A DNA stretch of 64,000 bases from Pseudomonadota bacterium (GCA_005776725.1 SXOO01000217.1:2944-66943), one strand, 5' to 3'. Counted from the stretch's first letter, positions 2,221 to 62,784 are shown. Notes: generated by a model from the letters alone, not told the origin. Translations and numbers: made by a program.

Positions 2221-2228
2221 GAGATCGC

Positions 2229-5057: not shown

Positions 5058-5140
5058 CGAGGCTCCACAGGGCACGCGCCGTGGGTTCGGCGCTGGCTCC
5101 AGTGAACGTCACTCATTGCGCCGCGCGGATCAAGCCGGTC

Positions 5141-9319: not shown

Positions 9320-9458
9320 CGGTGGGGACCGAGAACGGTTTGGTCTCTTTCGAAGGTGCGCACCGAAAGTAGTCTTACACGCGTTCTGTCGGAATGCCGA
9401 ACACCGTGTCCGGCGCGCAGCAGCGGCGCGGGGCGTGGGCTGACCGAAGCAGGTGGTG

Positions 9459-33110: not shown

Positions 33111-33181
33111 TCCCGCCCCGCTTGGCACCTACCATCCTCGGGTCCCGCGCCCGCCTGGCCGCGACGCCCTGGAGGCCCCTG

Positions 33182-45294: not shown

Positions 45295-47597
<2,303 letters not shown>

Positions 47598-47601
<4 letters not shown>

Positions 47602-49190
47602 ACCGGCACGACGCCTCGCCGCCGCCACGGCCGCTCGACCGTCTTGTTCTTGGTCAGCTCGAGGCCGTGGAGCAGCACGGCGCGCGTGTCCCTGGGGTCG
47701 ATGACCTCGTCCACGAACGCGTGCGCGGCCACCTTCGTCACGTTGATGTGCGGCCGGATGGCGTCGGCCATCTGCTTCACCATGGCCTCCCGGACCTCTG
47801 GGGTCGGTGCGGCCTGAAGGGCCTTGGACGCGGCGATCGACACCATGCCCTCCGGCCCCATGACGCTGATCTCCGCCGTGGGCCAGGCCACGAACACGTC
47901 CGGCTCGTACGCGCGCCCGTTCATGACGTAATACCCGGCGCCGTAGCCCTTCCGGACCACCACGGTCAGCTTCGGTACCGTCGCGTCAGCCACAGCGAAC
48001 AGCATCTTCGCGCCGTGCCGGATGATGCCCTCGCGCTCGACCTTGGACCCGATGAGGAAGCCGGGCACGTCTTGCAGGAAGACCAAAGGCACCCGGTACG
48101 CGTCGCACAGCGTGACGAAGCGCGCCGCCTTGTCCGCCGCGTTGACGTCGAGGACGCCGCCCAACATCTTCGGGTTGTTCGCCACGAAGCCCACCGGGAA
48201 GCCCCCGATTCGCGCGAAGGCGGTCACGATGTTCTTGGCCCACTTGGGCTTCATCTCGAGCAGCTCGCCGTCGTCCACCAGCAGCTCGATGAGCTTGCGC
48301 ATGTCGTAGCTGGCCTTCGGGTTGTCGGGCAGGAGGTCGAGGATGCGGTCATCGAGGCGCTCGGACTCCTTCGGGGCGTACGCTCTCCGCGGCGGGGCGT
48401 CGTTGCAGGAGGACGGCAGGAACGACAGGAAGCGCTTGATGGAGTCGAGGCAGTCCTGATCGGACTTGAACTCCTGGTCCGCCACGCCGGACTCCTCGTT
48501 GTGGACTCGGCTACCGCCCAGCTCCTCTTCGGTGATGTCCTCACCCACCGCCGCCTTGACAAGCGGTGGGCCGCCGAGCGCCATGGAGCTGGTCTTCCGC
48601 ACCATGGGCACGTAATCCGCGAGGCCGGGGATGTAGGCGGTGCCGGCCGCGCCGGGTCCCACCATCGCGGCCACCTGCGGGACCACCCCGGACATGTGCA
48701 CCTGCTCGCGGAACAGGTAGCCCGAGTCAGCGAAGTACGAGATCGTGGACGCTTGGTTGAGGCCTCCCTTCGGGTGCAGGCGGGCCCCGGCCGAGTCGAT
48801 GAGCCAGACGATAGGGATCCGCTGGCGCAGCGCCGTCTCTCGGAGCCGCGTCACCTTGACCTCGCCGGTCATGCCGATGCTGCCGCCCAGAACGGTGAAG
48901 TCGTACGCGGCGCAGGCCACGAGCCGCCCGTCGATGCGGCCCGTGCCGGTGATCACACCGTCCGCCGGCGCCAGGACGTCTTTTATCTCCTCGTTACCCA
49001 CGTGGAACGTGGCCAGGGAGCCGAACTCCTGGAAGGTCCCGGCGTCGAAGAGGTAGGCGATGCGCTCGCGCGCCGTGAGCTTCCCGCGTTCGTGCTGGCG
49101 GGCCACCCGCTCGGCGCCGCCCATCTCGGCGATCTCGGCGCGGCGCCGCTCGAGCTCGGCCACCATCTGACGCATCCGATTCTCGGTCAT
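47598..49190 (-). CDS. Acyl-CoA carboxylase carboxyltransferase (beta) subunit
   Basis: GKLTARERI, DFTVLGGS, DSAGARL, GGPPLVKAAVGE, ELGG, DKAARFV..CD, DVPGFLIG, RKGYGAGY, WPTAEISVMGPEG. Confidence 0.95.
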
Positions 49191-49357
49191 CTCGCAGCTC
49201 CTCCCGGCAACAGGGCCGGCGGAGCGTAGGGGGCGAGGGGCCGGGGGGTCAACGGTGTTAGGAAGTTAACGCGTCGCCCACACCGAGTTATGCACGCTCA
49301 CCCCGGTGACGGACGGATAGTAATGCAAAAACAGCATGTTGCGCTTGACAAGAAGGT

Positions 49358-49373
49358 TGGCTCGGCCATTGCA
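49358..49373 (+). promoter_or_regulatory. sigma54 (-24/-12) promoter of the barrel/metalloprotease operon
   Basis: TGGCTCG-GCCA-TTGCA with exact GG-N10-GC spacing, one mismatch to TGGCACG-N4-TTGCW. Upstream near-palindrome GTGTTA-N6-TAACGC (49255-49272) at an enhancer-like distance. Confidence 0.7.
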
Positions 49374-49528
49374 TACCGCTTTCGCGCCGTCGCACCTGAA
49401 TCCGGGGGGCCGCGAGCGCGAAGTGCCTTGGAAAGCTGCGGTTTATGCCTCGGATTTCCCTTGCAGCAGCATGGGCGCGGGACTACAACCGCCTGTCTTC
49501 AAGGCCGGTAGAAGGTCGGAGGAAACGC

Positions 49529-50617
49529 GTGAAGCTCTGGAAGACCCTCATCGCAGCAACCGCAGCGCTCTTCGTGAGCGCGCCCTCTGCGGTCGCCGGC
49601 GAGAAGCAAAAAAAGGACAACGCCTCGGCCACCGCTGCCGCGCCTGCGCCGGCTGCGAAGTCGTGGATGAGCCGCTTCAACGGCTCGCTCGTCTACGAGA
49701 ACGCGCTCGGGATGGGCACGTTCACGACCAAGGGCGAGTCGGCCCAGCCGCTGTGGAACATGTCCTACAGCGTGCGGCTCGGATACCTGCTCCACGAAGC
49801 GTCGAAGCTCAGGCTCACGCTCCGGCTCGACATGGATCAGAACGTCGTCGAGAACTACGCGTCCGCCAACACCCGGCCGCACCAGTTCCAGCTGTACGAC
49901 ATCCGACTCAGCCTCGGCCAGGGCGCCTTCGTCGGGTTCGTCGCGGACGGCTTCGGCCCCATGAGCGACAAGGGTGAGCGCCAGCCGGTGCTCAGCTTCG
50001 ACTGGTCCACCACCCTCATCTTCCCCACGGCCAAGGCGTCGCAGCTGGCCAACAAGTACCTCGGCGTCAGCGGCGGGCTCACCACCCACTTCACGCCGTT
50101 GAGCTGGATGGACCTTCGCTACGGCTTCGGCGTCACGAAGAACTTCAACCGGTTCACGAATCAGGTGCTCGACGTGTCGGACGTGTCCCTCCCCACGCCC
50201 TCCCGGGCGAACGGCGCGGAGAACGTGGCCGAAGGCCTCGTCGCGCTGGGCGGAGCGAACCTCGAGTGGTCGTTGTCACACGACATCGGCCTCGACTTCA
50301 GCTGGGGCGTCGGGCTTGGAGACATGGGCTTCACGCTCGGCTGGACCTACTTCCAGAGCATGACCTACGCCAACTTCACCAAGGACGAGCTGTCTTCGGA
50401 GTTTGCCAAGGCCGGCCGCGGCTACTCCGACCTCATGCGCGGCGTGGTTGAGGTCAGCTGGGCTCCGATTACCCACTTCGCGGTGGGTCTCGGCTGGCTC
50501 GTCGATCAGACCCCCAAGAACACGTCGGACGGCTCGTTCCGCTTCCCGTGGTGGGACACCACCAACGGCGCGGACAACGTCCAAACCTTCTATCTCGACC
50601 TCGTCGCCAGCTTCTGA
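49529..50617 (+). CDS. Outer-membrane beta-barrel protein (~12 strands)
   Basis: GGAGG RBS + GTG, Sec signal KLWKTLIAATAALFVSAPSAVA, ~12 amphipathic strands with aromatic ends, and BAM-type C-terminus FYLDLVASF. Confidence 0.8.
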   Translation: MKLWKTLIAATAALFVSAPSAVAGEKQKKDNASATAAAPAPAAKSWMSRFNGSLVYENALGMGTFTTKGESAQPLWNMSYSVRLGYLLHEASKLRLTLRLDMDQNVVENYASANTRPHQFQLYDIRLSLGQGAFVGFVADGFGPMSDKGERQPVLSFDWSTTLIFPTAKASQLANKYLGVSGGLTTHFTPLSWMDLRYGFGVTKNFNRFTNQVLDVSDVSLPTPSRANGAENVAEGLVALGGANLEWSLSHDIGLDFSWGVGLGDMGFTLGWTYFQSMTYANFTKDELSSEFAKAGRGYSDLMRGVVEVSWAPITHFAVGLGWLVDQTPKNTSDGSFRFPWWDTTNGADNVQTFYLDLVASF

Positions 50618-50676
50618 GGTCGCTCCCAATGTTTTTTCACGATAGCTCCGCCTCTTTTCCTGCGAGGGAGAACCCT

Positions 50677-53600
50677 ATGACTCAGCGGCCCCATGGATGG
50701 CTCCGTTCCGCGTTCGCGGTCGGGCTCGTCGGCCTTCTCGCGTCGAGCTGTGCCGAGGAAGTCGGCGACATCGACCGGACGTCCCCGAACAAGCTCAAGA
50801 AGACCCAGTTCGCTGGCTCTTGGTACTTCCTCCAGACGATGATCGACGTGCCGCAGCAGACGGCGCAGGGCTTCATCGGCAACACCAACTTCGGCAACAG
50901 CGCCAAGGTGGTGTTCGAGCTCACCGAGGACTGGCTGTACGTCCTGCCCATGCAGGAGACGGTTCAGTTCTCGGAGAAGCCGTACAAGGTGAAGAAGATC
51001 CGGAACTACTGGGAGCCGGGCCAGTCCCACGAGTTCGTCGAGCTCTACGTCGGCGAGCCCATCGCCGCGTTCCCGGTCGAGTCGCACTTCGACGTACGCC
51101 GCGAGTACAGCACCTCGACGGGCAAGCAGTCGAACGTGATCAGCGAGAACGCCACGGATCGCGTCTGGCACGAGCGCGAGTACGTCCGCATCAACTGGGG
51201 CGGCAACGCGGTCACCGACTGGATGTTCCCGCTCGGCTCCTCGCAGATGAGCTCCGTTGACCACTACGTGCAGGGCGTCGAAGACCAGACCCTGCGGCCC
51301 GACGGCGCCGGTACGAACCCGGACATCGCCGAGTTCGAGGGCGACTACATGTCGTTCGTCACGAAGGCGTTCGTCGCGCCGTCGGAGGCCAACTGGCAGG
51401 GCTACCTCTGCGACCCCTACGGCGTGTCCAACAAGGACTGCGCGGGCTCCGTCATCAAGGTGCGCCACAGCTTCAAGCGAGCTGATGCCACGCCGGACGT
51501 CGAGACCTTCGTCTACACGAACCGCGAGCACATGGACAAGTTCGGCTTCTTCCTCGCCGAGCGGCACGCGTACGACAGCCTGTGGGACCTCACCGAGTCC
51601 AAGCGCGACTACAAGGCGCAGCGCTGGAACCTCTGGCAGAGCACCTGGGATTACCGGAAGTACGTTGACGGCGTCGCTCAGGACAAGACCGAGGACGTCA
51701 TCCTCGGCACCGACGGCCAGCCGCTGCGCTGCCGCGACCACGTCGACTGCGGCACCGACGACAAGGTGCTCGACTTCACGGCGCTCCGCTGCGTCAAGGA
51801 CTCCATCTACGAGGCGGGTACCTGCAAGCGCGGCACGCTGCACAAGCTCGCCGACCGCGGGCTCCGCCCCATCATCTATCACATGAGCGCGCTCATGCCG
51901 GATGACGGCGAGCGGCAGTGGATGCGCCAGCAGTTCTACAAGAGCGCAGACGAGTGGTCGCGCGTGTACAAAGACGCCGTGGCCTGGGGCCTCGCGCTCG
52001 AGGACAAGGGCCAGTACTGGACGCGGGCCTGCGAGACGAACGCTGACTGCACCAAGGGCCGCAGCGACGTTCTGGTGGACCACGCGTTCCCCATGCCGCA
52101 GCTCGTCGATGGCGCCGCGAAGGCCGTAGGCTGCTCGGCGACCAACCCGTGCGCCAAGAACCAGAACTGCAAGAACGACGCGCAGTATGGTGACGTGTGC
52201 CACTGGAACGAGTCCGGCGAGCTGGTGGTCGAGTACGACCAGAAGACCGGCACCCGCAAGGGCACCGTCGTGATCTACGAGAACGCCGGCAAGTACGCGG
52301 TCGCGCTGGTGCAAGACGGCCAGACGCCCCCGTCGGGTGCGGCTGTCCGCTTCGTCAATGTGTCCGGCGCCGACGCCACGCTCACCGCCAATGGCGCGAC
52401 GCTCGCTCTCTCAGGCAAGCCGGCCGACAGCGGCTGGTACGAGGAGGTCATCGGGCAGACCGCCGGTGACGTCACGTTCGCCGCCGGCGGCAAGACCACC
52501 GCCCTCAAGCTCGCCAACAGCGGCGACTACGTCGTCGTCCTCACCGCCGACGGCCTCTACGCCGCTGGCGCGCTCCGCGCCTCGGGTGACGGGCTCCGCT
52601 TCTATTATGCCAGCGCGTCCACGAGCCTGATCGAGGCCGGCCTCAACGGGGCCCGGATCGTCGATTACTTCGGAGCCGGCCAGCTCAGCGCGTACGCGCC
52701 GCAGCCCTTCGACGAGGCTCGCGTCGTCGTGACCGCGCTGGGCGCCCAGGGCGACGTCACCTGCTTCTTTGCCGGCCACGAGGGCCGCTGCTCCGGTTGG
52801 TCGGCCTCGTGGTCCGAGGACGACAACAAGAAGGTCGCCGAGTACAAGGCCACGCTGCCGGACATGTTCCTCCTGTGTGAGAACCAGTACGACGCGGCCA
52901 ACGAGCAGAAGAACTTCGACGCCGCGAAGAGCGCGGGCGACACGCAGGCCGACCGCGGCAAGAACTGGGAGCTCGAGGCGGCCGCCCTGAATGACGGCCG
53001 TTACTCGGTGGCGGGCAAGAACCCGTACAACACCGGGCTCGGCCAGAACCAGAACGTCCCGGGGATCTTCAACCCCTGCCGCGACCTCGTGGCGGGTGAT
53101 CCCACCGCGCTGAAGAAGATCGGCGACATGCGCTACAACTACATCTACTGGGTCGCCGAGAACCAGGCGGCCAGCCCGCTCGGCTACGGCCCGAGCGCGG
53201 GTGACCCCGAGACCGGGCAGCTCGTCTGGGGCACCGCGTACATCTATGGCGCCCCCACGCTCACCTACGGCCAGGCGTCGAAGGACCTCGCCGACATCGT
53301 CAACGGCGTCACCGACCCGGCCGACGTGGTCACCGGAAAGTACATCCGCGACTTCGTGCAGCGGAAGGGGGACGTCCTCCCGCAGGACAACTCCGGCACG
53401 CTCTTCGAGGGCGGACTCGCTCACGCAGAGCACGCCCACGAGCACCCGCAGTTCGACGCTGCGGGCGTGGTGCACCCCGCCTTCGATCCCTTCAAGAACG
53501 AAGAGATCGTGCGCTTCATGACCGACAAGGCGTTCCAGAAGCAGCTGCTCCTGGGTCTGCCCACCGTGTCGGACAACATGGTCTCGGCCCGCCTCGACGC

Positions 53601-55881
53601 CATCCGCGGCACGGCCCTCGAGGACATGATGATCAACGACGAGGTGCGCTTCGCCGTCGGTGGCTCCCTGGAGAGCGCGCCGACCACCAACGCGCTCCGC
53701 GAGAAGCTCAGCCCGGCCTCGTGGGCCTCGGGCAAGGTTGCCCGCGCCGAGCTCAGCCAAGGTCGGAACAAGGCCCTGGCGAAGGCGCCGTGCTCCTTCG
53801 ACCGCGAGTTCATGGACGACAACATCTACGGTATGGCGAAGGAGTTCTTCTGCACGGATGACGAGCGCGCCGCGGGCACCAAGGAGTGCCTCGAGGGCGA
53901 CGACCTCCGGTGGAAGATCACCGTCCGCATCGCCTCGGGCCTCATCGAGCACGAGATCGGTCACACGATGGGCCTTCGCCACAACTTCGGAGGCTCGCCC
54001 GACCTCTTCAACTTCCACGACCAGTACTACGAGGTTCGTGAGAAGGAGCAGATCTACTGCAAGTCGGACGGCCACTGTGACGAGGACTACGGCGAGACCT
54101 GCCTCCTCCAGACGGCGTGCAGCGCGTCGAACCCCTGCCCGGGCGGCCTCACCTGCGTGACCGGTCAGTGCGTCGACGGCATCGGTGTGCAGACGGGCCT
54201 CTGCGCCCTCGATGGGACGCCCGTCGAGAAGCTCGCGCCCCGCGCGAAGATGACCGAGCAGGAGCGCCTGAACAAGCTCTCCGAGTACCAGTACAGCACG
54301 GTCATGGACTACGGCGGCACCTTCAACGCCGACGTGCACGGCCTCGGCAAGTACGACTACGCGGCGATCAAGTTCGGCTACCTCAAGATGGTCGACATCT
54401 ACACCGACACCTCCAAGATCCGGGAGCGCATCGCCTCGCTGTCCGAGCGCTACGGCAACGACCCGTCGAACTTCGCCTACTTCCTCGACACCGACGGATG
54501 GCGCTACGCGGGCGTGCTGTTCTCACCGTTCTACTATCTCGAGAACTACATCGGCGTGGAGCAGAACAAGAAGCGCCGCGCGGCCTCGTACGAGCAGGTC
54601 AAGCTCGAGAAGGAGATGGTCACGAACTACGACTCGGGTGAGCTCTACTGGAGCTACATCGAGGTGCCCTACCGCTTCTGCTCCGATGAGTTCAACGGCA
54701 ACCTCGGCTGTTACACCTGGGATACCGGCGTGGACGTTGGCGAGATCGTGCACAACGCCATCGGCAAGGTCGACGAGTACTACATCATCGATGCATTCAA
54801 GCGGGAGAGCCTGTTCAAGGGCGGCGACTCCTTCATCCGCAGCTACTACAGCCGCCTCCTCACGAGGTACCTGAATGTGCTCGCGGACAGCGGTCGCTAC
54901 TTCGCCATCTACGACAACATCTTCCGCGATCGGTCGTGGTACCCGGACTTCTCGAGCAACATCTACTCGCTCGGGACCCTGGCCAGCGCCGCTCAGCGCT
55001 CGTTCAACCACCTCGCTCAGATGATCGCGGCGCCGGCGCCGGGCTCCTTCGAGCAAGGCAGCGACGGGGTGTACCGCAACATCAGCTACGAGGAGGTCGC
55101 GGGCGCCGACCTGACGGTCCCCGTGGGCGTCGGCAAGTTCCCGTACACGCAGTTTCTCTCGCCCGAGTTCTACGGGTTCGAGAACCACGTGCTCTTCGTG
55201 GGCGGCTTCTGGTCGAAGCTCGCGGCCCTCGAGACGCTGACGGACAGCACCTTCTACTCGTCCTCTGACTGGGTCGGCGAGCAGCTGCCCACGGGCCGGA
55301 GCACGTCGGTCGGCTTCAACACGCTCTACCAGCGCGAGATGACGAACCTCCTCGGCGGCCTCATCGCCGAGTCGCTCGGCGAGTACAGCGGCCTCGCGGA
55401 CGTGGGCACGGACGGCAAGCCCGTATTCCGGACCCGCGACCTCTTCAACCCGGCCGATGGTGCGGGCGCCCCGTCGGTGGAGCCGAGCCTCAACAACCTG
55501 AGCCTCAAGCTCTACGCCACCTGGTACGGCATGGCCAACCTGCCCGCCGGCTTCGACCCGAGCTTCACGGACGCGATGGCTGTGTTCCTCGAGGGCCACG
55601 GCGACGAGTACGACCTCACCACCACGGCGTCTGGCGTGGAGATGACGGAGTTCAAGGATCCCTTCGGCGGCAAGACCTACCGGGCCTACGCGCCGAACTA
55701 CGACTCCGGCCGTATCGCACCGGCGTACACCATCGTTCAGCGCGCTCAGGCGGCGCGCGAAGCGTGGGAGAACGCGTCGGGCCAGGCCAGGCTGGAGCTC
55801 GAGCGCCAGATGAAGAAGGACATCGAGGTTCTCGATGCCCTCCGCAGCTTCCAATCCGTTTACGGCAGCCTCACCTACTGA
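50677..55881 (+). CDS. Giant zinc-dependent metalloprotease lipoprotein (metzincin, EcxA/DUF4953-like), 1734 aa
   Basis: ATG at 50677 with GAGGGAG RBS, lipobox LLASSC, HEIGHTMGLRHNF, Met-turn STVMDY, inserted Cys modules and an Ig-like (DUF4397-like, VRFVNVS) region. Confidence 0.88.
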   Translation: MTQRPHGWLRSAFAVGLVGLLASSCAEEVGDIDRTSPNKLKKTQFAGSWYFLQTMIDVPQQTAQGFIGNTNFGNSAKVVFELTEDWLYVLPMQETVQFSEKPYKVKKIRNYWEPGQSHEFVELYVGEPIAAFPVESHFDVRREYSTSTGKQSNVISENATDRVWHEREYVRINWGGNAVTDWMFPLGSSQMSSVDHYVQGVEDQTLRPDGAGTNPDIAEFEGDYMSFVTKAFVAPSEANWQGYLCDPYGVSNKDCAGSVIKVRHSFKRADATPDVETFVYTNREHMDKFGFFLAERHAYDSLWDLTESKRDYKAQRWNLWQSTWDYRKYVDGVAQDKTEDVILGTDGQPLRCRDHVDCGTDDKVLDFTALRCVKDSIYEAGTCKRGTLHKLADRGLRPIIYHMSALMPDDGERQWMRQQFYKSADEWSRVYKDAVAWGLALEDKGQYWTRACETNADCTKGRSDVLVDHAFPMPQLVDGAAKAVGCSATNPCAKNQNCKNDAQYGDVCHWNESGELVVEYDQKTGTRKGTVVIYENAGKYAVALVQDGQTPPSGAAVRFVNVSGADATLTANGATLALSGKPADSGWYEEVIGQTAGDVTFAAGGKTTALKLANSGDYVVVLTADGLYAAGALRASGDGLRFYYASASTSLIEAGLNGARIVDYFGAGQLSAYAPQPFDEARVVVTALGAQGDVTCFFAGHEGRCSGWSASWSEDDNKKVAEYKATLPDMFLLCENQYDAANEQKNFDAAKSAGDTQADRGKNWELEAAALNDGRYSVAGKNPYNTGLGQNQNVPGIFNPCRDLVAGDPTALKKIGDMRYNYIYWVAENQAASPLGYGPSAGDPETGQLVWGTAYIYGAPTLTYGQASKDLADIVNGVTDPADVVTGKYIRDFVQRKGDVLPQDNSGTLFEGGLAHAEHAHEHPQFDAAGVVHPAFDPFKNEEIVRFMTDKAFQKQLLLGLPTVSDNMVSARLDAIRGTALEDMMINDEVRFAVGGSLESAPTTNALREKLSPASWASGKVARAELSQGRNKALAKAPCSFDREFMDDNIYGMAKEFFCTDDERAAGTKECLEGDDLRWKITVRIASGLIEHEIGHTMGLRHNFGGSPDLFNFHDQYYEVREKEQIYCKSDGHCDEDYGETCLLQTACSASNPCPGGLTCVTGQCVDGIGVQTGLCALDGTPVEKLAPRAKMTEQERLNKLSEYQYSTVMDYGGTFNADVHGLGKYDYAAIKFGYLKMVDIYTDTSKIRERIASLSERYGNDPSNFAYFLDTDGWRYAGVLFSPFYYLENYIGVEQNKKRRAASYEQVKLEKEMVTNYDSGELYWSYIEVPYRFCSDEFNGNLGCYTWDTGVDVGEIVHNAIGKVDEYYIIDAFKRESLFKGGDSFIRSYYSRLLTRYLNVLADSGRYFAIYDNIFRDRSWYPDFSSNIYSLGTLASAAQRSFNHLAQMIAAPAPGSFEQGSDGVYRNISYEEVAGADLTVPVGVGKFPYTQFLSPEFYGFENHVLFVGGFWSKLAALETLTDSTFYSSSDWVGEQLPTGRSTSVGFNTLYQREMTNLLGGLIAESLGEYSGLADVGTDGKPVFRTRDLFNPADGAGAPSVEPSLNNLSLKLYATWYGMANLPAGFDPSFTDAMAVFLEGHGDEYDLTTTASGVEMTEFKDPFGGKTYRAYAPNYDSGRIAPAYTIVQRAQAAREAWENASGQARLELERQMKKDIEVLDALRSFQSVYGSLTY

Positions 55882-55912
55882 TCCGGGCAAGAAGGACGAA
55901 AGGGACAACCCA

Positions 55913-58900
55913 ATGAAGACCATGTTTCGTCATCTCTTCGCCTTGACGCTCGCGGGCGGCGCGGCCACGGCCGTCGGCTGTGCTCAGGAGCTCGAAGAGA
56001 TCAATCGCGTTCAGAACAACGTCACCAAGAAGGCCGACCTTCGCGGTGAGTGGTACTACCGCCAGACGGTGGTGGATGCGCCGTACACGTCGCTCGAGTT
56101 CTTCCCGGGCAATCAGAGCATGCTCTCTCGGGGCGTGTTCGAGATTCAGTCGGGGACGCTCTACTTCTTCCGGACGTACGAGCTGATGATCGGCGGCGAG
56201 ACCCTCGGTGCCGCCTCCGACATCGACACGCCTCTCTACGAGGTCGACGCCAACGGCGAGGTCGTGATCGACGCGAAGACGGGCAAGCCGAAGCCGGTCA
56301 CCTACCTCCGGCGCGTAGGCGACGAGCTCGTCACGGTGCAGAAGTACGTCTATCGCGGGGTGCCGCTCGCGGCCTTCCCGATCGAGAAGCACTTCGACAT
56401 CCAGCAGGGCTACAACCCGTTCACTGGTGAGGCCACCAACGTCACGGACGAGAACAGCTCGGATCGGCAGTGGTGGGAGACGGAGTACATGCGCGTCAAC
56501 TGGGGGGCCTCGAGCTTCAAGCCGGTCGACAGCGTGTCCAACGGCTCGGGCGGCACCAGCGTCGAGGAGTACTTCGACGAGGAGCGGGAGCCCGCCGAGG
56601 CCCCGGTGTACGAGCGCTCGGCCACGGGCGACCTCACGTACTTCGACTATCTGAGCCGCAAGACGATGGGCGCGCCCACGTCGTACCTCGAGGACTACGG
56701 CGTCATCCCGTCGTGCCTCTACTACCCCTGGTATCTCGGGCAGGTCGCTGAGTGCGTCTCGGAGCGCGTCACGTTCCGCGAGGCCTTCAAGCGGGTCGAG
56801 CCCAGCGACTACGTCGCTTGGGACTACGACGACAAGAACCTGAAGAAGTTCGGCTTCTTCCGGAACGAGCGCTCGCAGTACGACGCGGTGTACGGCAACA
56901 CGTTCTCGGGTGCGTCCCGCCGGATTCAGCGGCACCGCATGTGGGAGACCTACGTCGTCAAGCAGGGCGCTGCGTGCGACCTGGCGGCCGACTCGGACGC
57001 GCAGAACAGCTGCCAGGCTGGCGAGGTCTGTGAGGCCCTCGCCGACGGCAAGGCCTTCTGCGTGAACGCCGACGCCAACGACCGGCTCGACTACTCGAAG
57101 ATGACCCCGAAGCCGGTGGTCTACTACATGAGCGAGCAGTACCCCCGTGAGCTCGTGCCCGAGGCGGTGCAGCTAGCGGCCAACTGGTCCACGCCGCTCG
57201 TCGACGTCGTCGCGGTCCGCAAGGGCACGGCGCCGGAGCACCCGATGTTCATCGTGTGCGAGAACAACCGCGCCGAGGCCGCTGCCGCCATGCAGGCCCT
57301 CGGCAAGGACGTGAACAACGCGGCCGATGTCGAGGAGGCCCAGAAGGCTGGTCTGCTCGGCGAGATCGACCCGACGTTCTGCGCCGACATGGACAAGACC
57401 AAGCGCTTCGGCGACCTGCGCTACTCGCTCCTCGCGTCGGTGAACGCGCCGATCTCGTACGGCCTGTACGGGTACGGCCCGTCCAGCGCCGACGCGCTGT
57501 CGGGCGAGAACCTGTCGGCCAACGCCTATATGTACACGCCGGCGATGAAGCAGGGCGCGAACATGGCGATGGTGGCCATCGAGCTCCAGACCGGTATCCG
57601 CAGCTTCTGGGAGAGCGTCTACGCCAACCACGTCCGGGACGTCGGCGAGAAGGGCCGACTCGGCGCCGCCCAGGGCGGGCTGCCGAAGTACACGCTGGCC
57701 ACCGCGCGCCTCGCGGCCAAGGGCCTGCTCACGCCGGACGTGCGCGAGCGGCTCGAGACGATGGGCGTGGAGAAGACCGACGGCGCGTACGCCGAGAACC
57801 GGATGGCGCTGCTGGCCAAGAACGCTCCGGAGCTCGCGGCTGAGCTCGTCACGGAGGACGTGAAGGTCATGCTTCGCGACCCGTCCCTCGCCTTCCCGGA
57901 GAAGGACACCACCGACAAGCTCGTGGCCCGCGCCGGTATGCAGGTCTGGGGACACCACCGCGGCAACCTCGGCAAGAAGCTCGAGGAGATGCGGGTCAAC
58001 AGCACGCGGGCCTGCCGCTTCGAGGACCACTTCGCCGACAACGCCATCCTCGGTCTCGCTCGTGAGTACGGCCAGGCGATGGATCAGGCCGTCTGCGATG
58101 CTGCGAAGGCGTCCGGGAACCCGCACTTCGACTTCCAGGTGTTCGAGGAGTACCAGGGTCCTTGCGACTCCGAGGGCGCCGAGAGCGCCGATGGCCTCCT
58201 CAAGTGCGTGAACGTCGCCACGGGTGCTTCGCAGGAGGGTCTCTTCTGGGAGAACCGCTGCTCCGTCGGCCAGCTCAAGGCGCAGATCGCCAACGCGGTC
58301 GTCGACCTCGAGCAGACCAACCCGTACTACTTCGCCAACGACTACTTCCCGCCGGACCCGATCTACACGAACACCAAGCACGAGTCGCTCAACGCGGCCC
58401 AGATGGTGATCCGTGACGCGATCGAGGCCAAGCGCGGAGAGCTCGTCACGGCCCTCTACAAGCGCATCTACCAGGGTGTGGCGGAGCACGAGGTCGGTCA
58501 CACCCTCGGCCTGCGCCACAACTTCGAGGCGTCGACTGACGCCATCAACTTCGGCAAGGAGTACTGGGACCTCAAGGGCAAGTTCGGGCAGGACGGGAAG
58601 TTCCACGCGACCGATATGTTCGCCGGTGAGACCGCGTACCAGACCAAGAACATGATGCGCCAGATGCAGAGCGCCTCGGTCATGGACTACAGCGCGAAGT
58701 TCAACGACCGCTTCCAGGGCGTCGGCTACTACGACCGCGCTGCCATCCGCTACGGCTACGGTGGCCTCGTCGAGGTGTTCAACAAGACGCCGGACACCGA
58801 GCAATTCGCCAAGTACATGGAGGATCCTGCCGATACGGATCCCTCCAACACCGCGCTCGTGCCGGATCTCTCGACCACCCCGCTCGAGAGTGTGTTCAAG

Positions 58901-60289
58901 CGCCTGCACTACACGCGTATCCCAGACCTGTACAAGGCAGACGCCGAGAACGCGATCAACAACCTGTACGACCGCAAGTTCGTGCCGGTGACCACCCTCG
59001 ACGACACCGTGGTCGAGGTTCCCTACCGGTTCTGCTCCGACGAGCTCTCGTACCGCATCCCGACGTGCGCCACGCGCGACTCGGGTGCGGACTCCTTCGA
59101 GATCGTGCGCAACGCCCTCGAGGACTACGAGCAGTACTGGCCCATCTGGGGCTACTGGCACGAGAGCCTCTTGTTCCAGCCGTCCATCTACTACAACCGC
59201 GTGGCGTTCACGTTCGGCGCGATCAAGATGCAGCTGCAGTGGTGGGCCCTCGAGGTCCAGCGCTTCAACCGCAACGGCTGGTGGCAGGACCGCTTCGGCA
59301 CCACGTGGGACCAGGACGAGAACGCGGGCCTCAACGGCGCGGTCGCTGTTCAGGACTCCCTCAACGTCCTCGCCGCGGCCTTCGGTCGCCCGGAGCCCGG
59401 TACGCACGGCTACAACGTGAAGAAGAACGTGTACGAGCCGCTGCCGTACCTCGATAGCTCGCTCTACTCGAACTACAAGCTGATCACGCCGATCAACTGC
59501 GACGCCCGCGACCTCTACCCCGCGTACGACTACGACGGCTACCTGCCGATCGCCACGCGCGCCGGCGCCATCTACGACCGCCTCGTGGCGTTCGAGGTGC
59601 TCGCTGACCCGACGGGTATGTTCATCGCGAACGACCAGCAGAACGACGTGACCAAGTACCTCCTCAGCTACTACACGCTGTTCCCGAAGGAGCTCATGAA
59701 CCTCTACTCCGGCATGGTCGCGAACAAGACGGACCTCTGGGGCTGGTACATGGTCACCAACGACAAGGGCACCCCCGACCACTGCGTGCGCCGCAACATC
59801 CGTGGGCCCGAGGCGAAGTCCATCGACGAGATGACCGCCGAGCTGGTGCCTGGCCAGAAGGTTTGGGCCCTGAATCCCGAGCCGGAGTACACGTTCCCGA
59901 CCACGCGCTTCCGCGTCCCCATGCTGGCGGCGCTCTACGGCCTCTCGATGTTCAACGACGCCTACGACCAGTCCTTTACGGACGTCACGCGCGTCTTCGT
60001 GGACGGCCACAAGGACGGGATCACGCCCAGCGATGACGCTGACGTGGTGAGCTTCACGGATCCGCTGAGCGGCAAGACCTACTCCGCCACGGTATCGAAG
60101 TTCTCCAGCGGGCTCTTCCACCCGGGCAAGTACATGATCGAGCGGCTCGAGGCCGAGCTCGCCGAGTACAACGACCTGAGCGAGCTGCAGGAGAACTACA
60201 ACTACAGCGAGTACCAGTTCGTGATCGACAAGCTCGAGCTGCTCCGCGGTATGAACGCGGCGTACGACGGGACTGCGGTCTACTTCTAG
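55913..60289 (+). CDS. Second giant zinc metalloprotease lipoprotein, paralog of the preceding gene, 1458 aa
   Basis: ATG at 55913, lipobox TAVGC, HEVGHTLGLRHNF, Met-turn SVMDY. Shares W.(F/Y).QT..D.P, AAFP.E.HFD, KFGFF..ER, GD.RY, GYGPS..D..G, VPYRFCSDE and F.DP..GKTY with its neighbour. Confidence 0.9.
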   Translation: MKTMFRHLFALTLAGGAATAVGCAQELEEINRVQNNVTKKADLRGEWYYRQTVVDAPYTSLEFFPGNQSMLSRGVFEIQSGTLYFFRTYELMIGGETLGAASDIDTPLYEVDANGEVVIDAKTGKPKPVTYLRRVGDELVTVQKYVYRGVPLAAFPIEKHFDIQQGYNPFTGEATNVTDENSSDRQWWETEYMRVNWGASSFKPVDSVSNGSGGTSVEEYFDEEREPAEAPVYERSATGDLTYFDYLSRKTMGAPTSYLEDYGVIPSCLYYPWYLGQVAECVSERVTFREAFKRVEPSDYVAWDYDDKNLKKFGFFRNERSQYDAVYGNTFSGASRRIQRHRMWETYVVKQGAACDLAADSDAQNSCQAGEVCEALADGKAFCVNADANDRLDYSKMTPKPVVYYMSEQYPRELVPEAVQLAANWSTPLVDVVAVRKGTAPEHPMFIVCENNRAEAAAAMQALGKDVNNAADVEEAQKAGLLGEIDPTFCADMDKTKRFGDLRYSLLASVNAPISYGLYGYGPSSADALSGENLSANAYMYTPAMKQGANMAMVAIELQTGIRSFWESVYANHVRDVGEKGRLGAAQGGLPKYTLATARLAAKGLLTPDVRERLETMGVEKTDGAYAENRMALLAKNAPELAAELVTEDVKVMLRDPSLAFPEKDTTDKLVARAGMQVWGHHRGNLGKKLEEMRVNSTRACRFEDHFADNAILGLAREYGQAMDQAVCDAAKASGNPHFDFQVFEEYQGPCDSEGAESADGLLKCVNVATGASQEGLFWENRCSVGQLKAQIANAVVDLEQTNPYYFANDYFPPDPIYTNTKHESLNAAQMVIRDAIEAKRGELVTALYKRIYQGVAEHEVGHTLGLRHNFEASTDAINFGKEYWDLKGKFGQDGKFHATDMFAGETAYQTKNMMRQMQSASVMDYSAKFNDRFQGVGYYDRAAIRYGYGGLVEVFNKTPDTEQFAKYMEDPADTDPSNTALVPDLSTTPLESVFKRLHYTRIPDLYKADAENAINNLYDRKFVPVTTLDDTVVEVPYRFCSDELSYRIPTCATRDSGADSFEIVRNALEDYEQYWPIWGYWHESLLFQPSIYYNRVAFTFGAIKMQLQWWALEVQRFNRNGWWQDRFGTTWDQDENAGLNGAVAVQDSLNVLAAAFGRPEPGTHGYNVKKNVYEPLPYLDSSLYSNYKLITPINCDARDLYPAYDYDGYLPIATRAGAIYDRLVAFEVLADPTGMFIANDQQNDVTKYLLSYYTLFPKELMNLYSGMVANKTDLWGWYMVTNDKGTPDHCVRRNIRGPEAKSIDEMTAELVPGQKVWALNPEPEYTFPTTRFRVPMLAALYGLSMFNDAYDQSFTDVTRVFVDGHKDGITPSDDADVVSFTDPLSGKTYSATVSKFSSGLFHPGKYMIERLEAELAEYNDLSELQENYNYSEYQFVIDKLELLRGMNAAYDGTAVYF

Positions 60290-60299
60290 TCCTCACCTG

Positions 60300-60358
60300 A
60301 GCCCGGGGCCGCGCGAGCGCCAAACTTCGAGTTGGCGCTCGGGCACGACCCACGGGCT
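60300..60358 (+). other. Long GC-rich hairpin after the protease operon
   Basis: Perfect CGAGCGCCAA/TTGGCGCTCG stem (60314-60341), extended by AGCCCG/CGGGCT. Confidence 0.6.
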
Positions 60359-60422
60359 GTGGGCCGCCCCCTGACGGTGCCCTGGAGGCCCCGCTCACCG
60401 GGAGCGAAACAACACCCGCTGT

Positions 60423-60457
60423 CACGACGCCGGCCTCGCGCCGGCGTTCGTGTTTCT
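60423..60457 (+). terminator. Likely intrinsic terminator
   Basis: CACGACGCCGGC-loop-GCCGGCGTTCGTG followed by TTTCT (short U tract). Confidence 0.5.
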
Positions 60458-60510
60458 GGATACCGGTGCGCGCCGTTGACAGGCCGGCCGGGCGAAGGGA
60501 CAACCGCGCA

Positions 60511-61449
60511 GTGCTCGCCACCGCCAAGGACCTCGATCGTGTACTGGCCCGGCGTTTCCTCGTCGTGGCGGGGAAGGGCGGAGTGGGCAAGTCCACCGTC
60601 TCGGCGGTGCTGGCGCGCGTCGCCGCGGGTCGGGGCAAGCGGGTGCTCGTGGTGGAGCTGGGCGGGCGAGAGCGCGTAGCGCGCCTCCTCGGGCACCCCG
60701 AGCCGGTGGGCTATACGCCCACGCGCGTCCTCCCCAATGTCCACGTCATCAACGTGCAGCCGGGCGTGGCCCAGCGCGAGTACGGATTGATGAAGCTGCG
60801 CTTCGAGCGTGTCTACGACCTCGTCTTCGAGAACCCCCTCATGCGTTCGCTCACGCGGTGGATCCCGGGGATGAACGAGCTCGTGTTGATCGGCAAGGCC
60901 TGGCACCTCGAGCAGGAGCGGGAAGCGGGGCGGCCGCGGTGGGACACGCTCATCGTGGATGCGCCCGCAACGGGGCACGGGATCTCGCTCTTGCAGCTGC
61001 CGCATGTCGTCACCGAGAACGTGAAGCGCGGACCGCTCGCCGAAGAGGTGCTGGTGATCCGTGACATGCTCACCGACGCCGACCGCACCTGTATGAGCCT
61101 CGTCACACTGTGCGAGGAGATGCCCGTGCGCGAGACGCTCGACCTCGAGCGCGCGATGCAAGACACGCTGCGTATCGCGCCGGGCCTGCTCGTCTTGAAC
61201 GGGCTCTATCCCGAGCGTCCGACGCCGGCGGTCCAGCACCGGTTGGCCCAGCTCGAGGGCAGCTCCAGCGCTGCCCGCGCGGCGCTGTTCCTGTCGGAGC
61301 GGCGGCGCGTACAAGAGAGTCACCGCGCGCTGCTCGACAGCCGCTCACAGCTCCCTCAGGTGGCGCTGCCTTACGTCTTCCGGCCAGAGTTCGACGCGGC
61401 GGCCGTGGAGTCCCTCGCGCGTGAGCTCGAGCACTCGACGACCTGTTGA
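60511..61449 (+). CDS. ArsA/Get3-related P-loop ATPase (Rv3679-like)
   Basis: VAGKGGVGKST deviant Walker A, IPGMNEL, IVDAPATGH, TLCEEMPVRET, LVLNG. GTG at 60511 follows TTGACA-N17-GACAAC. Confidence 0.85.
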   Translation: MLATAKDLDRVLARRFLVVAGKGGVGKSTVSAVLARVAAGRGKRVLVVELGGRERVARLLGHPEPVGYTPTRVLPNVHVINVQPGVAQREYGLMKLRFERVYDLVFENPLMRSLTRWIPGMNELVLIGKAWHLEQEREAGRPRWDTLIVDAPATGHGISLLQLPHVVTENVKRGPLAEEVLVIRDMLTDADRTCMSLVTLCEEMPVRETLDLERAMQDTLRIAPGLLVLNGLYPERPTPAVQHRLAQLEGSSSAARAALFLSERRRVQESHRALLDSRSQLPQVALPYVFRPEFDAAAVESLARELEHSTTC

Positions 61450-61464: not shown

Positions 61465-62784
61465 ATGTCCAATGAGCCCCTGCCACGCGGCGTTCAGCCG
61501 CTTGGCGCGACGCCGTTCGGTAGTCGGACGGTCGAGGCGTTCCGCCTCGACAACGGCCTCCGCCTCGTGGTCCTCCCGCAGCCGCGAGGTAGCGTGTTCG
61601 CCTGGCATACCTGGTTTGGCGTCGGGTCGAGGCACGAGCTACCGGGCCGCACGGGGATCGCCCACCTGTTCGAACACATGATGTTCAAGGCGACCCATCG
61701 CTTCGGCGACGGCGAGTTCGACCGCGCGATGGAGGCCCGGGGGGCGCAAACCAACGCCGCCACGTGGCTCGATTGGACCTACTACCACGAGGTGCTGCCC
61801 GTCTCGGCGGAGAACCTCGACTTCGTCGCCGAGGTCGAGGCAGACCGCATGGTGAACCTGCGCGTCGACCACGGGCAGCTCACGGCAGAGCGCGAGGTGG
61901 TGCTCAACGAGCGCCGGTATCGCGTGGATGACGATCCCGAAGGGCGCCTCGGCGAGCGCCTCTCCTCGCTGCTCTTCGGCGCCGAGCACCCTTACGGCTG
62001 GCCCACGATCGGCTGGTTGCCCGACATCGAGGCGATCTCCACCGGCGACTGCGAGGACTTCTACAAGACTTGGTACGCGCCCAACAACGCCACGGTCGTG
62101 GTCGCCGGCGGCGTGGGCGTCCACGAGGTGGTGGCGCGGGTCGCGGCGCGTTACGGCGGGCTCTCGGCCTCAACCCTGCCACAGCGTCCGACGCCCCCGG
62201 ACCTGAGGCCATCGGCGCCGCGCAGGGACGAGCTCCTCCTTCCCCTCAGCGCCGACCGCCTGCACTTCGGCTGGGTCGGGCCAGCGCTGGATACGCCCGA
62301 CAACGCGGCGATCGAGGTGGCAGTGGAGCTGCTCGTTGGCGGCGAGTCCTCGCGCCTCGTCCGTCGCCTCGTGGATGAGCTGGAGCTGGCGACCAGCGTC
62401 GACGGATTCGCGCCCCAGTTCCGCTACCCCGGGCCGATGGAGCTCTTCGTGTCTGCCCGCGAGCCGGGGGCCGGCGAGGCCATAGAGGCCGAGATCGTCT
62501 CGGGGCTCGAAGCGCTGGGCGCCGAGGTTCCGCTGGAGCGGGAGGTGCGTCGCGCCAAGAACCAGCTGGAGGCCTCGACGTACCGCTCGAACTACTCGGC
62601 CAACGCGGTCGCAGGGAAGCTGGGTTTCTACGACGCTACGGTCGGAGACTTCTCCGGGTTCCAGCGTCACATCGATCGGGTTCGCGAGGTCACTCCCGAC
62701 GATGTCCGCCGTGTCGCGCGGACCTACCTCGACCCACAGCGTCGCGCGGTCGTCATCGGTCGTCCCGACGGGAGCGCCACATGA
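61465..62784 (+). CDS. M16B zinc peptidase, catalytic subunit
   Basis: LDNGL, VGSRHE...GIAHLFEHMMFK (inverted HxxEH), NAAT, EREVVLNERR, HPYGWPTIG, WYAPNNA. AAGGAG RBS. Confidence 0.93.
   Translation: MSNEPLPRGVQPLGATPFGSRTVEAFRLDNGLRLVVLPQPRGSVFAWHTWFGVGSRHELPGRTGIAHLFEHMMFKATHRFGDGEFDRAMEARGAQTNAATWLDWTYYHEVLPVSAENLDFVAEVEADRMVNLRVDHGQLTAEREVVLNERRYRVDDDPEGRLGERLSSLLFGAEHPYGWPTIGWLPDIEAISTGDCEDFYKTWYAPNNATVVVAGGVGVHEVVARVAARYGGLSASTLPQRPTPPDLRPSAPRRDELLLPLSADRLHFGWVGPALDTPDNAAIEVAVELLVGGESSRLVRRLVDELELATSVDGFAPQFRYPGPMELFVSAREPGAGEAIEAEIVSGLEALGAEVPLEREVRRAKNQLEASTYRSNYSANAVAGKLGFYDATVGDFSGFQRHIDRVREVTPDDVRRVARTYLDPQRRAVVIGRPDGSAT

Follow-up and report, generated by a model that had tools for sequence, protein, structure and literature searches.

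A locus of an uncultured myxobacterium was found to carry three co-oriented genes between a sigma-54-type promoter and a terminator-like hairpin, the first (g1) for an outer-membrane beta-barrel and the other two (g2 and g3) for giant paralogous lipoproteins with metzincin motifs. Since the three-gene unit is kept class-wide and has no studied match, it is probably a hitherto undescribed cell-envelope device for protein digestion. A literature search retrieved no paper on a module made of a barrel and paired metzincins, in line with an earlier note on this DNA, which knew of no characterised system of this kind. The reading favoured here, tentatively and at somewhat less than even confidence, is that g1, g2 and g3 form one sigma-54-driven transcription unit that builds an outer-membrane proteolytic module. 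The features are listed below, with coordinates counted in the window, i.e., the whole stretch of 64,000 nucleotides that was analysed.

49358-49373, + strand: sigma-54-type promoter element (-24 GG / -12 GC), TGGCTCGGCCATTGCA
49529-50617, + strand: g1, 362-aa outer-membrane 12-stranded beta-barrel (signal peptide, AF2 model)
50677-55881, + strand: g2, 1734-aa lipoprotein with EcxA/DUF4953-type metzincin motif (motifs and PF16313)
55913-60289, + strand: g3, 1458-aa lipoprotein, paralogue of g2, metzincin (motifs, PF16313 and AF2 model)
60426-60458, + strand: terminator-like hairpin GACGCCGGC-ctcgc-GCCGGCGTT with T-rich tail (9 pairs, 7 of them G-C)

Promoter, terminator and codon use

The genes are separated by 59 bp (g1/g2) and 31 bp (g2/g3), as the earlier note had it and the ORF coordinates bear out, and the start codons of g1 and g2 are preceded by GGAGGA and GAGGGAG, respectively. 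About 155 nt before the g1 start, the promoter element agrees with TGGCACG-N4-TTGCW at 11 of the 12 specified positions. In 8 of the 21 orthologous loci, a site with at least 10 of 12 matches precedes g1 at a similar distance, one of these sites being perfect (12/12), against a chance rate of about 0.012-0.016 such sites per 600 nt per strand. Together with rpoN, found in the genome on contig C154, these sites uphold the near-consensus sigma-54 promoter proposed before, and a promoter scan of 49100-60700 detected no sigma-70-like site. A palindrome had also been claimed upstream, but searching 49190-49530 for inverted repeats (seed 6) gave only a 9-nt, 89% repeat at 49200-49248, which is not convincing as an activator site. 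A scan of 39 ORFs in the window (the operon's three genes, 8 flanking and 28 further ORFs) detected no Sigma54_activat domain; the sigma-54 enhancer-binding protein may be encoded elsewhere.

The stem-loop downstream occupies 60426-60448 and starts 137 nt beyond the g3 stop, so that a hairpin with a T-rich tail does lie where a terminator region had been reported. Since a terminator scan gave a site count no higher than in shuffled sequence, the sole argument for the hairpin is its placement after the last gene. GC3 of the operon genes (0.917-0.935) falls at the 89th-97th percentile of a crude reference set of 3467 long high-GC3 ORFs from the same genome, which agrees with the C/G-ending codon use described earlier. 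However, the genome is 70% G+C and nearly all its genes prefer C/G-ending codons (background TTC 0.93, AAG 0.93), and codon use is thus a weaker sign of high expression than had been suggested.

The barrel

The g1 product has the features of an outer-membrane beta-barrel, namely an N-terminal signal peptide (...SAVA), a closed antiparallel barrel and a C-terminal aromatic residue. Its AF2 model (pLDDT 88.2, pTM 0.83) contains 12 long strands, and the chain ends in ...VASF with a terminal Phe, both as anticipated from the sequence. The last residue is F or Y in 19 of the 19 g1 orthologues listed from the 21 loci, the g1 frames of the other two lying outside the list. Only about 25 low-confidence residues separate the signal peptide from the first strand in the model. 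No Pfam or NCBIfam family matched g1 at E<=0.1, and its relatives amount to 1392 cluster representatives at E<=1e-3. The most conserved motifs, GxGTF, PTSxxSQ, RAxGAE and FRFP(F/W)WD, would lie in extracellular loops according to the usual topology of outer-membrane proteins.

Structural comparison by VIA-align placed g1 nearest to the COG4313 channel 4rl8 (Z 16.7), KdgM 4pr7 (Z 16.5) and FapF 5o65 (Z 16.2). The other neighbours were Tsx, OmpG, autotransporter beta-domains (Z 13-14.5) and, with KdgM, the VhGalP and NanC porins (Z 15.4-16.5, NanC at 15.4); Foldseek returned FapF at 9.5e-9 and COG4313 at 2e-6. By Z score, 4rl8 is level with KdgM and FapF. The nearest folds include polypeptide-conducting 12-stranded barrels (FapF, autotransporter beta-domains); as these are tied with the substrate channels (COG4313, KdgM, NanC), the fold cannot decide between export and uptake. 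Membership of g1 in COG4313/PF13557 (Phenol_MetA_deg) by sequence was rejected, with no match at E<=0.1. Among the ESM Atlas look-alikes of g1 are Phenol_MetA_deg/SphA-type clusters carrying PF13557, which serve as leads only.

The two proteases

Both g2 and g3 are metzincins, by an extended zinc motif and Met-turn in each and by the catalytic fold of the g3 model. The zinc motif of g2 is HEIGHTMGLRH (residues 1092-1102, nt 53950-53982) with Met-turn M1210, and that of g3 is HEVGHTLGLRH (residues 859-869, nt 58487-58519) with Met-turn M924; with the lipoboxes LLASSC (Cys25) in g2 and AVGC (Cys23) in g3, these motifs match the earlier description of two metzincin lipoproteins. Residue +2, directly after the lipid-bearing Cys, is Ala in both. 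In Myxococcus, Lys at +2 keeps lipoproteins in the inner membrane. By these signals, g2 and g3 would receive a lipid anchor and be directed to the outer membrane. A script recovered the lipobox in 19 of 21 g2 and 17 of 21 g3 orthologues, with GLTDC and LLPAC visible in two of the four g3 sequences missed. HExxHxx[G/S]xxH and [VIL]MDY occur in all 21 g2 orthologues, one of which has S for G, and among 56 g3 relatives C23, H859, H863, G866, H869, M924 and Y926 are invariant, while E860 is at least 90% conserved.

The two proteins exceed the PF16313 cut-off of 24.2 bits (g2 32.2, g3 45.8), with partial coverage of profile positions 16-35 and 7-35, respectively, of 316. No PDB chain matched either of them by sequence. 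The AF2 model of g3 residues 23-1222 (pLDDT 81.8, pTM 0.85) can be read as an N-terminal beta-rich domain, a metzincin core broken by a mainly helical insert, and a C-terminal domain. VIA-align rows 1-27 for this 1200-residue model were all zinc metallopeptidases (Z 10.0-5.8), led by EcxA 4l6t (Z 10.0, rmsd 3.3 A, 190 residues aligned). Foldseek of the same model returned nothing at E<=0.001; support for the metzincin fold comes from the VIA-align scores (Z 10-6) together with the motifs. Both g2 and g3 would be catalytically active zinc endopeptidases and belong to the EcxA/DUF4953 branch of the metzincins.

BLASTP aligned g2 and g3 collinearly, with 27% identity over the N-terminal ~430 aa (E 2e-35) and 26% over the C-terminal ~540 aa (E 2e-34). 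Relative to g3, g2 has an extra stretch of ~340 aa (about 437-779), as well as a Cys-rich insert between zinc motif and Met-turn. A third paralogue of g2 and g3 occurs in the same genome, with no adjacent barrel.

Conservation and descent

The same-strand order g1-g2-g3 was observed in all 21 loci that were read completely, in two of which g1 is known just from weaker matches and the barrel tree, and is kept among families in which the g2 or g3 orthologues are just 35-58% identical to those of the window. Protease genes are near-universal in the class (40/41 genomes), and the barrel adjoins g2 in 32 of the 41, of which 28 were linked via single-sequence matches and 4 more via a barrel profile. 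Family f8 lacks a barrel beside the g2-g3 pair: the barrel is unlinked in five genomes and was not found in one. Profile search of five f8 genomes located the barrel elsewhere in four, including G040, where it lies beside a prolyl-tRNA synthetase-like gene, and found none in G032 (95% complete).

Other Myxococcota carry a two-gene form, or dyad, composed of the barrel and a single paralogue of ~1270-1460 aa. The barrel lies directly upstream of the protease in five of the six contigs fetched and downstream in the sixth, and the six dyad barrels make up one clade (support 100/99) separate from the triad barrels. The two-gene form is older than the triad. The g2, g3 and dyad proteases fall into three separate groups. 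Median summed bits are higher inside the groups (996, 877 and 562, respectively) than across groups (338-366), and 21/21 g2, 21/21 g3 and 6/7 dyad proteases have their nearest neighbour in their own group. The g2-g3 duplication, already thought old from the collinear blocks, therefore predates the families of the class, and both copies were retained. Barrel and protease have co-diversified, the barrel clades in the tree following the type of the neighbouring protease.

In a phylum sample of 151 Myxococcota genomes, where related genomes are not independent, the barrel is present in 66 of 68 protease-positive genomes and in 13 of the 83 in which the protease family was not found. Such an asymmetry would be expected from a one-way dependence, in which the protease requires the barrel but the barrel does not require the protease. 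Barrel relatives in Bradymonadales adjoin MutS, or an IgGFc-binding-like protein and a kinase. Barrels without protease, or beside unrelated genes, indicate that the barrel family has protease-independent roles. The neighbourhood comparison, the chief test by which the earlier proposal of a complex could have been refuted, thus came out in its favour, with the linkage in 32 genomes and an independent dyad elsewhere, while the term "dedicated" proved too strong in view of family f8, the 13 protease-free genomes and the barrels beside unrelated genes.

Comparison with known systems

EcxA, the A subunit of the E. coli EcxAB toxin, belongs to the secreted proteases. The extended zinc motif and Met-turn are shared by g2, g3 and EcxA/PF16313, and a homologue of the dyad protease from a cultured organism is named "EcxA zinc-binding domain-containing protein" in UniRef. 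In contrast to EcxA, the g2 and g3 chains are 6-7 times longer and are lipoproteins with an N-terminal beta-rich domain, a large insert in the catalytic domain and a C-terminal domain of ~430 aa; the partner is a barrel rather than the B pentamer of EcxAB.

The genes next to Slam (DUF560) encode surface lipoproteins, TbpB, fHbp and others. The present locus resembles this arrangement in that a barrel gene lies beside genes for large lipoproteins, which by co-occurrence seem to be barrel-dependent. Slam clients were reportedly predicted by such a logic (PMC5449769). Nevertheless, g1 has no DUF560 match (Pfam, E<=0.1), has 12 strands where Slam has 14, lacks the N-terminal periplasmic TPR domain and would have giant metzincins as clients; with neither DUF560 nor TPR domain, g1 was ruled out as a Slam translocon.

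With the 12-stranded barrels 4rl8, FapF (5o65), KdgM/NanC and autotransporter beta-domains, g1 shares strand number and overall fold, but sequence identity is 6-12%, no Pfam family is common to them and the loop motifs of g1 are its own. Autotransporter (type Va) and two-partner secretion were also rejected: the barrel is a separate 362-aa 12-stranded protein, neither fused nor of the Omp85-type 16-stranded TpsB kind, and the "passengers" g2 and g3 are separate genes with lipoprotein signal peptides. SusCD/RagAB loci of Bacteroidota are operons of an outer-membrane barrel and surface lipoproteins for polymer use. Unlike these, g1 is not a 22-stranded TonB-dependent transporter, g2 and g3 are enzymes and not SusD-like lids, and the phylum is another.

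Possible mechanisms

In the favoured mechanism, g1 would insert in the outer membrane as a 12-stranded barrel, and g2 and g3 would be lipidated, sent to the outer membrane and active there as zinc endopeptidases. The two would be non-redundant and most likely work either next to each other or joined in a heteromer. Their membrane partner would be the barrel, each protease requiring its cognate barrel for placement and retention on the outer face, and the surface g2-g3 pair would cut extracellular protein, whether prey, matrix or detrital.

Alternatively, and rather unlikely, g2 and g3 would cleave protein extracellularly or within the outer-membrane layer, and the barrel would be a substrate-specific uptake channel for the products, either peptides or hydrophobic or acidic fragments, by a SusCD/RagAB-like logic with no TonB-dependent transporter. 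The folds nearest to g1 (the COG4313 channel, KdgM/VhGalP/NanC porins, Tsx and OmpG) and the Phenol_MetA_deg/SphA-type look-alikes agree with uptake, as do the protease-free and unlinked barrels, which a general channel would produce, and the position of the barrel as first operon gene. However, a channel for the products would be expected to need the protease, whereas nearly all protease genomes have the barrel and many barrels have no protease. Furthermore, barrel clades that track protease type fit protein-protein recognition better than generic small-peptide uptake, and g1 falls outside PF13557 and every porin Pfam family.

Proteases facing the periplasm are a less probable alternative still, in which g2 and g3, anchored in the inner outer-membrane leaflet, would degrade envelope proteins or process them, for quality control or maturation, and the barrel would serve as their substrate, regulator or docking site. 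By default, lipoproteins sorted by Lol are exposed to the periplasm unless a surface-export route exists, and a core envelope function would fit both the near-universal presence in the class and a stable housekeeping neighbourhood, with HflX and a carboxyltransferase upstream of the operon in the window and HflX again in genome G024. On the other hand, the size of the two proteases (160-190 kDa), their large additional domains, a codon bias above average and sigma-54 control point to a regulated, abundant digestive function more than to housekeeping; EcxA, the closest solved relative of the catalytic domain, is among secreted proteases, and the failure to find the family in 83 of 151 Myxococcota genomes is contrary to an essential envelope role. 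Co-transcription with no joint mechanism, in which the barrel would be an unremarkable outer-membrane protein that shares its promoter with two proteases, is very improbable: the unlinked barrel of f8, the barrel paralogues beside unrelated genes and the barrel-less third protease paralogue speak for it, but the order kept in all 21 loci across diverged families, the second, separately evolving barrel-protease pairing in other classes with a barrel tree split to match, and the barrel in 66 of 68 protease genomes speak against it.

Barrel-dependent placement of the g2/g3 proteolytic module at the outer membrane thus stands as the leading, still provisional, explanation, in which physical contact, surface exposure and substrates are presumed. 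Counting against it are the unlinked barrel of f8, the protease-free barrel relatives, the third paralogue without a barrel, the tie of the g1 fold between channels and exporters and the empty Foldseek result for the g3 model, and a 12-stranded lumen is narrow for the passage of 160-190-kDa proteins. A bolder extension, which we consider unlikely, is that the g1 family constitutes a third device for surface-lipoprotein placement, unrelated to Slam and the LptD route, which each giant EcxA-type metzincin lipoprotein of Myxococcota needs to reach the surface and stay there, with paralogues of barrel and protease matched. If so, g2 and g3 would pair as a heterodimeric "jaw" on the surface of cells that live as predators or saprophytes.

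Operon layout and control signals

Between positions 49255 and 60457, three long co-oriented reading frames, each high in third-position G+C, encode a 12-stranded outer-membrane barrel (g1) and two giant metzincin lipoproteins (g2 and g3). The layout proposed in the earlier note, three genes separated by gaps of 59 and 31 bp, was borne out by the reading-frame coordinates, and the sigma-54 promoter before g1 and the hairpin/terminator region after g3 were likewise recovered; the palindrome claimed upstream of the promoter was unconfirmed by an inverted-repeat search.

Features of the g1-g2-g3 operon
49358-49373, + strand: sigma-54-type site TGGCTCGGCCATTGCA, 11 of the 12 specified positions of TGGCACG-N4-TTGCW
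49529-50617, + strand: g1, 362 aa; GTG start with GGAGGA 7 bases before it; signal peptide MKLWKTLIAATAALFVSAPSAVA; C-terminus ...LVASF
50677-55881, + strand: g2, 1734 aa; ATG start preceded by GAGGGAG; lipobox LLASSC closing the signal peptide
55913-60289, + strand: g3, 1458 aa; AVGC at the signal peptide end
60426-60458, + strand: terminator-like hairpin of 9 pairs, followed by a T-rich tail

The window's genome encodes rpoN. Furthermore, 8 of the 21 loci have, at a comparable distance upstream of g1, a site matching at least 10 of the 12 positions (12/12 in one case), against a chance expectation of about 0.3 across the 21. No sigma-70-like promoter was detected in 49100-60700, and no Rfam family matched the leader and the rest of the region (49150-60600, E<=0.1).

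The operon's G+C (0.64-0.68) lies below that of its flanks (mostly 0.68-0.75) because of codon positions 1 and 2, whose G+C of 0.51-0.52 falls in the 1st-2nd percentile of the genome's long ORFs. Such a composition would fit a Lys/Asn/Tyr/Asp-rich secreted protein with codon bias somewhat above average. The high expression previously argued from codon use found its counterpart in a GC3 of 0.92-0.935, at the 89th-97th percentile of the long ORFs, which hints only weakly, if at all, at high expression.

An ArsA/Get3-like ATPase gene (60466-61449) lies directly after the terminator, and two adjoining M16 (insulinase-type) peptidase genes occupy 61465-62784 and 62781 to the window end. On the - strand at 45295-47628, a 777-aa frame contains an HflX-type GTPase (residues 215-518) and a thiopurine-methyltransferase-like domain (563-751), owing either to a gene fusion or to two genes having been taken for one; the HflX at the matching place in genome G024 has 574 aa, without the methyltransferase. 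At 142-5075 and 33086-39705 the window encodes several large, apparently secreted proteins bearing Dictyostelium-type Cys repeats, FG-GAP repeats or IPT/TIG domains, among them a 1430-aa TIG-repeat protein.

The barrel family

g1, an outer-membrane protein with 12 strands, belongs to an undescribed family. It matched no Pfam and no NCBIfam family; when a profile was run against 1.84 billion cluster representatives, 1392 relatives were returned at E<=1e-3. The AlphaFold2 model, for which 77 of these relatives were aligned, has twelve long strands (pLDDT 88.2, pTM 0.83), so that the description of g1 as a ~12-strand barrel ending in Phe was upheld. VIA-align placed the COG4313 channel 4rl8 first (Z 16.7), then KdgM (16.5), FapF (16.2), VhGalP (15.7) and NanC (15.4), with autotransporter beta-domains, OMPLA and Tsx in lower rows, while Foldseek ranked FapF best (9.5e-9) and COG4313 second (2e-6). 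The top structural matches are tied; the modelled fold is that of a 12-stranded outer-membrane barrel and nothing narrower. The strongest-conserved motifs, GxGTF, PTSxxSQ, RAxGAE and FRFP(F/W)WD, appear to sit between strands, where the AlphaFold2 strand list and standard OMP topology would place them on the putative extracellular side.

The paired metzincin lipoproteins

The catalytic domain of g2 and g3 groups with EcxA/DUF4953-type metzincins. The two proteins are collinear, 27% identical across the N-terminal ~430 residues and 26% across the C-terminal ~540; the zinc motif falls between these aligned blocks, and the extra length of g2 consists mainly of a stretch at ~437-779 and a Cys-rich insert separating the zinc motif from the Met-turn. 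The metzincin motifs and lipoboxes described earlier are indeed intact. Among 56 g3 relatives, no substitution occurs at the lipobox Cys, H859, H863, G866, H869, M924 or Y926, and conservation of E860 is at least 90%; HExxHxx(G/S)xxH and [VIL]MDY are kept in 21 of the 21 g2 orthologues read. Common to both families is the motif A/T-E/Q-D/E-x-G-D/E-I-D-R-T/V-Q, which follows the predicted lipid-bearing Cys.

The only Pfam family in g2 and g3 was PF16313 (DUF4953, 'Met-zincin'), which scored above cut-off with an alignment spanning just 20-29 of 316 positions. NCBIfam gave no match for g2 and a sub-threshold one for g3 (NF038122, 13.6 bits vs a cut-off of 80). Searching the PDB by sequence with g3 yielded no match at E<=1; a profile of the 56 relatives reached 15 chains (serralysins and stromelysin-1) at E 0.33-0.75, over the zinc motif only. 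The AlphaFold2 model of g3 residues 23-1222 (pLDDT 81.8, pTM 0.85) had no Foldseek match in the PDB at E<=0.001, and matches in the ESM Atlas were DUF4953 clusters only. By VIA-align, rows 1-27 were zinc metallopeptidases without exception, with EcxA (4l6t) best at Z 10.0 (rmsd 3.3 A, 190 residues), followed by Pseudomonas alkaline protease (Z 9.0) and proMMP-9 (Z 8.5). The aligned ranges (~290-380 to ~930 of the model) and the secondary structure suggest that some 280 residues, mostly helical, are inserted into the metzincin core. Beta structure dominates the N-terminal ~270 residues, whose matches, all weak (Z <=5.7), were small beta-barrels and lipocalin-like folds.

Two structural candidates were rejected. 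A long disordered tether threading the barrel is contradicted by the g3 model, where the confident part sets in at about mature residue 11, leaving no room for a long linker. Against a beta-signal at the lipoprotein C-termini, a helix is predicted there, and F or Y is the last residue in ~13 of 21 g2 orthologues and in roughly half the g3 ones.

Median summed bits were 996, 877 and 562 within the g2, g3 and a third, single-paralogue group, against 338-366 between groups. Because the three groups are separate, the g2/g3 duplication is older than the families of the class; the old duplication suspected from the divergence of the two genes therefore stands, at 26-27% identity. Both copies have been retained with intact catalytic residues.

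Besides its one barrel and the g2-g3 pair, the window's genome has a third paralogue on another contig (C255, 5292-9107), ~1220 aa from the likely start within a stop-to-stop frame of 1271 aa, with lipobox FLAGC followed by AQELAD; it has no adjoining barrel. A 1533-aa ORF lies upstream in divergent orientation, and downstream (9217-11283) a 688-aa frame with an internal signal-peptide-like start ends in ...SAGF and might encode a larger outer-membrane protein.

Linkage within the class

The class (GTDB UBA9042) was surveyed in 41 genomes from 16 families. Single-sequence searches found g2 and g3 relatives in 40 of the 41 and the barrel in 35, and comparison of the coordinates of these matches put the barrel of 28 genomes directly next to a g2 homologue and in the same orientation; for G002, the barrel contig has 1479 bases and ends 42 codons into g2. 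In G009, G017, G024 and G034, a divergent barrel missed by the single-sequence search was found by profile immediately upstream of g2, bringing barrel-g2 adjacency to 32/41. The order g1, g2-type, g3-type is constant in 21 of 21 loci (the window and 20 fetched). The nine genomes without the adjacency are six of family f8 and three others: G003, 80% complete, showed fragments only; G011 yielded neither barrel nor protease relatives; and the protease matches of G035 were weak only.

The synteny foreseen in the earlier note thus held in adjacency and order and gave way in one family, f8, where the barrel was either unlinked or not found. In five f8 genomes (G014, G021, G028, G036 and G040) the barrel is on a different contig from g2-g3, and in G032 (95% complete) none was found, the barrel profile included. 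When five f8 genomes were searched with that profile, four had a single barrel each, unlinked to g2-g3; that of G040 adjoins a prolyl-tRNA synthetase-like gene. Adjacency of the barrel to the proteases is dispensable, as f8 shows. At the f8 loci of G040 (L029) and G014 (L035), the divergent genes upstream of g2 encode a conserved protein of 192 aa and a secreted one of ~520 aa, the latter ending in ...F and with weak TPR matches.

Distribution in the phylum and the barrel tree

In an even sample of 151 Myxococcota genomes, strong g3-type matches occurred only inside the class (28/28), and weaker protease matches (1e-21 to 1e-49) in 40 of the 123 other genomes, as single proteins in frames of mostly ~1230-1630 aa. 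The barrel profile matched 79 of the 151 genomes: 66 of 68 protease-positive and 13 of 83 protease-negative ones, at thresholds that differ (1e-20 for the protease, 1e-5 for the barrel) and among related genomes that are not independent. The association is asymmetric: a protease without a barrel is a rare exception, whereas barrels do occur without proteases.

Outside the class, a barrel paralogue may be paired with a single ~1300-aa protease paralogue (a dyad, against the triad g1-g2-g3). On six dyad contigs, chosen for barrel and single-protease matches within a few kb, the barrel is directly upstream on the same strand in five and downstream in G047. The two matches lie 9-10 kb apart on one contig in G068 and G109, and ~360 kb apart in G052, a complete 5.0-Mb genome of the family holding Bradymonas and Persicimonas; the two-gene form is present in G159 of that family. 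Homologues of the dyad protease with 52-53% identity are annotated in cultured Persicimonas caeni and Bradymonas sediminis, under the UniRef name 'EcxA zinc-binding domain-containing protein'.

A maximum-likelihood tree of 33 barrels unites the six dyad barrels in a single clade (100/99), separate from all triad barrels, and places the unlinked barrels of G040 and G024 among the latter. Barrel lineages track the kind of adjoining protease. Two triad-type barrels each are carried by G024 (loci L030/L034) and G009 (L063), the divergent one beside g2 and the other unlinked; the unlinked one groups with the window's g1 (100/100), and in G024 adjoins a Cu/Zn superoxide dismutase-domain gene. These two-barrel genomes hint at duplication of the barrel or its exchange between lineages.

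Distant barrel relatives in Bradymonadales/Lujinxingia have no protease within 10 kb; some adjoin MutS, and others are preceded by genes for an IgGFc-binding-like protein and a Ser/Thr kinase. The barrel adjoins mutS in loci L021, L022 and L025, and follows a ~710-730-aa IgGFc-binding-domain protein (scanned or matched by ORF size) in L017, L018, L020, L027 and L028. An ORF of ~1220-1250 aa intervenes in L018, L026, L027 and L028; where scanned (L018, L027), it proved to be a Ser/Thr kinase that also bears AAA and TPR domains.

Proposed function and comparison with known systems

Owing to the results on gene order, co-occurrence and the barrel tree, a functional tie between the barrel and protease families appears very likely. 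In the tentatively favoured model, held at somewhat under an even chance, the barrel would be the element on which the protease lipoprotein depends for placement or retention, with the proteases exposed at the surface. Alternatively, the proteases would cut protein and the barrel channel take up the products. The modelled barrel fold is compatible with both and cannot separate them; however, the asymmetry between barrel and protease and the matching of their lineages would fit dependence of the lipoprotein on the barrel better than a mere uptake channel, and digestion with import is considered rather unlikely. A complex prediction of barrel residues 36-362 with g3 residues 23-352, using alignments for each, scored 0.00 (mark 0.32) and is evidence neither way. 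That the enzymes are envelope proteases facing the periplasm seems improbable, and that barrel and proteases share no joint mechanism more improbable still.

Outer-membrane barrels with lipoprotein partners, as well as metzincin lipoproteins, are kinds already known. From Slam, g1 differs in lacking both DUF560 and a TPR domain, and in having 12 strands instead of 14; neither SusCD nor autotransporters fit the module. Literature searches on DUF4953, and on Bradymonadales, predation and metalloprotease combined, found no paper. Among the matches listed for Myxococcota metalloproteases, lipoproteins, outer membrane and sigma-54, none concerned the module by title and abstract start, nor did any of those listed for surface lipoproteins and Slam or for EcxA, metzincins and M66. 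As far as these listed matches reach, the claim that no characterised system has this architecture was sustained, and there is a real chance that the module hides a new route of lipoprotein placement.

In conclusion, an undescribed barrel family is tied to an undescribed protease family by gene order, co-occurrence and co-diversification, and therefore a specific barrel-client dependence is open to test; experiments are possible because cultured Bradymonas and Persicimonas species carry a close homologue of the dyad protease. The finding bears on how Gram-negatives other than Neisseria and Bacteroidota place large lipoproteins on their surface. Myxococcota live by digestion of prey and detritus, and this conserved, probably abundant pair of predicted outer-membrane zinc proteases, of 160-190 kDa, is a candidate for a core component of that predatory or detrital lifestyle.
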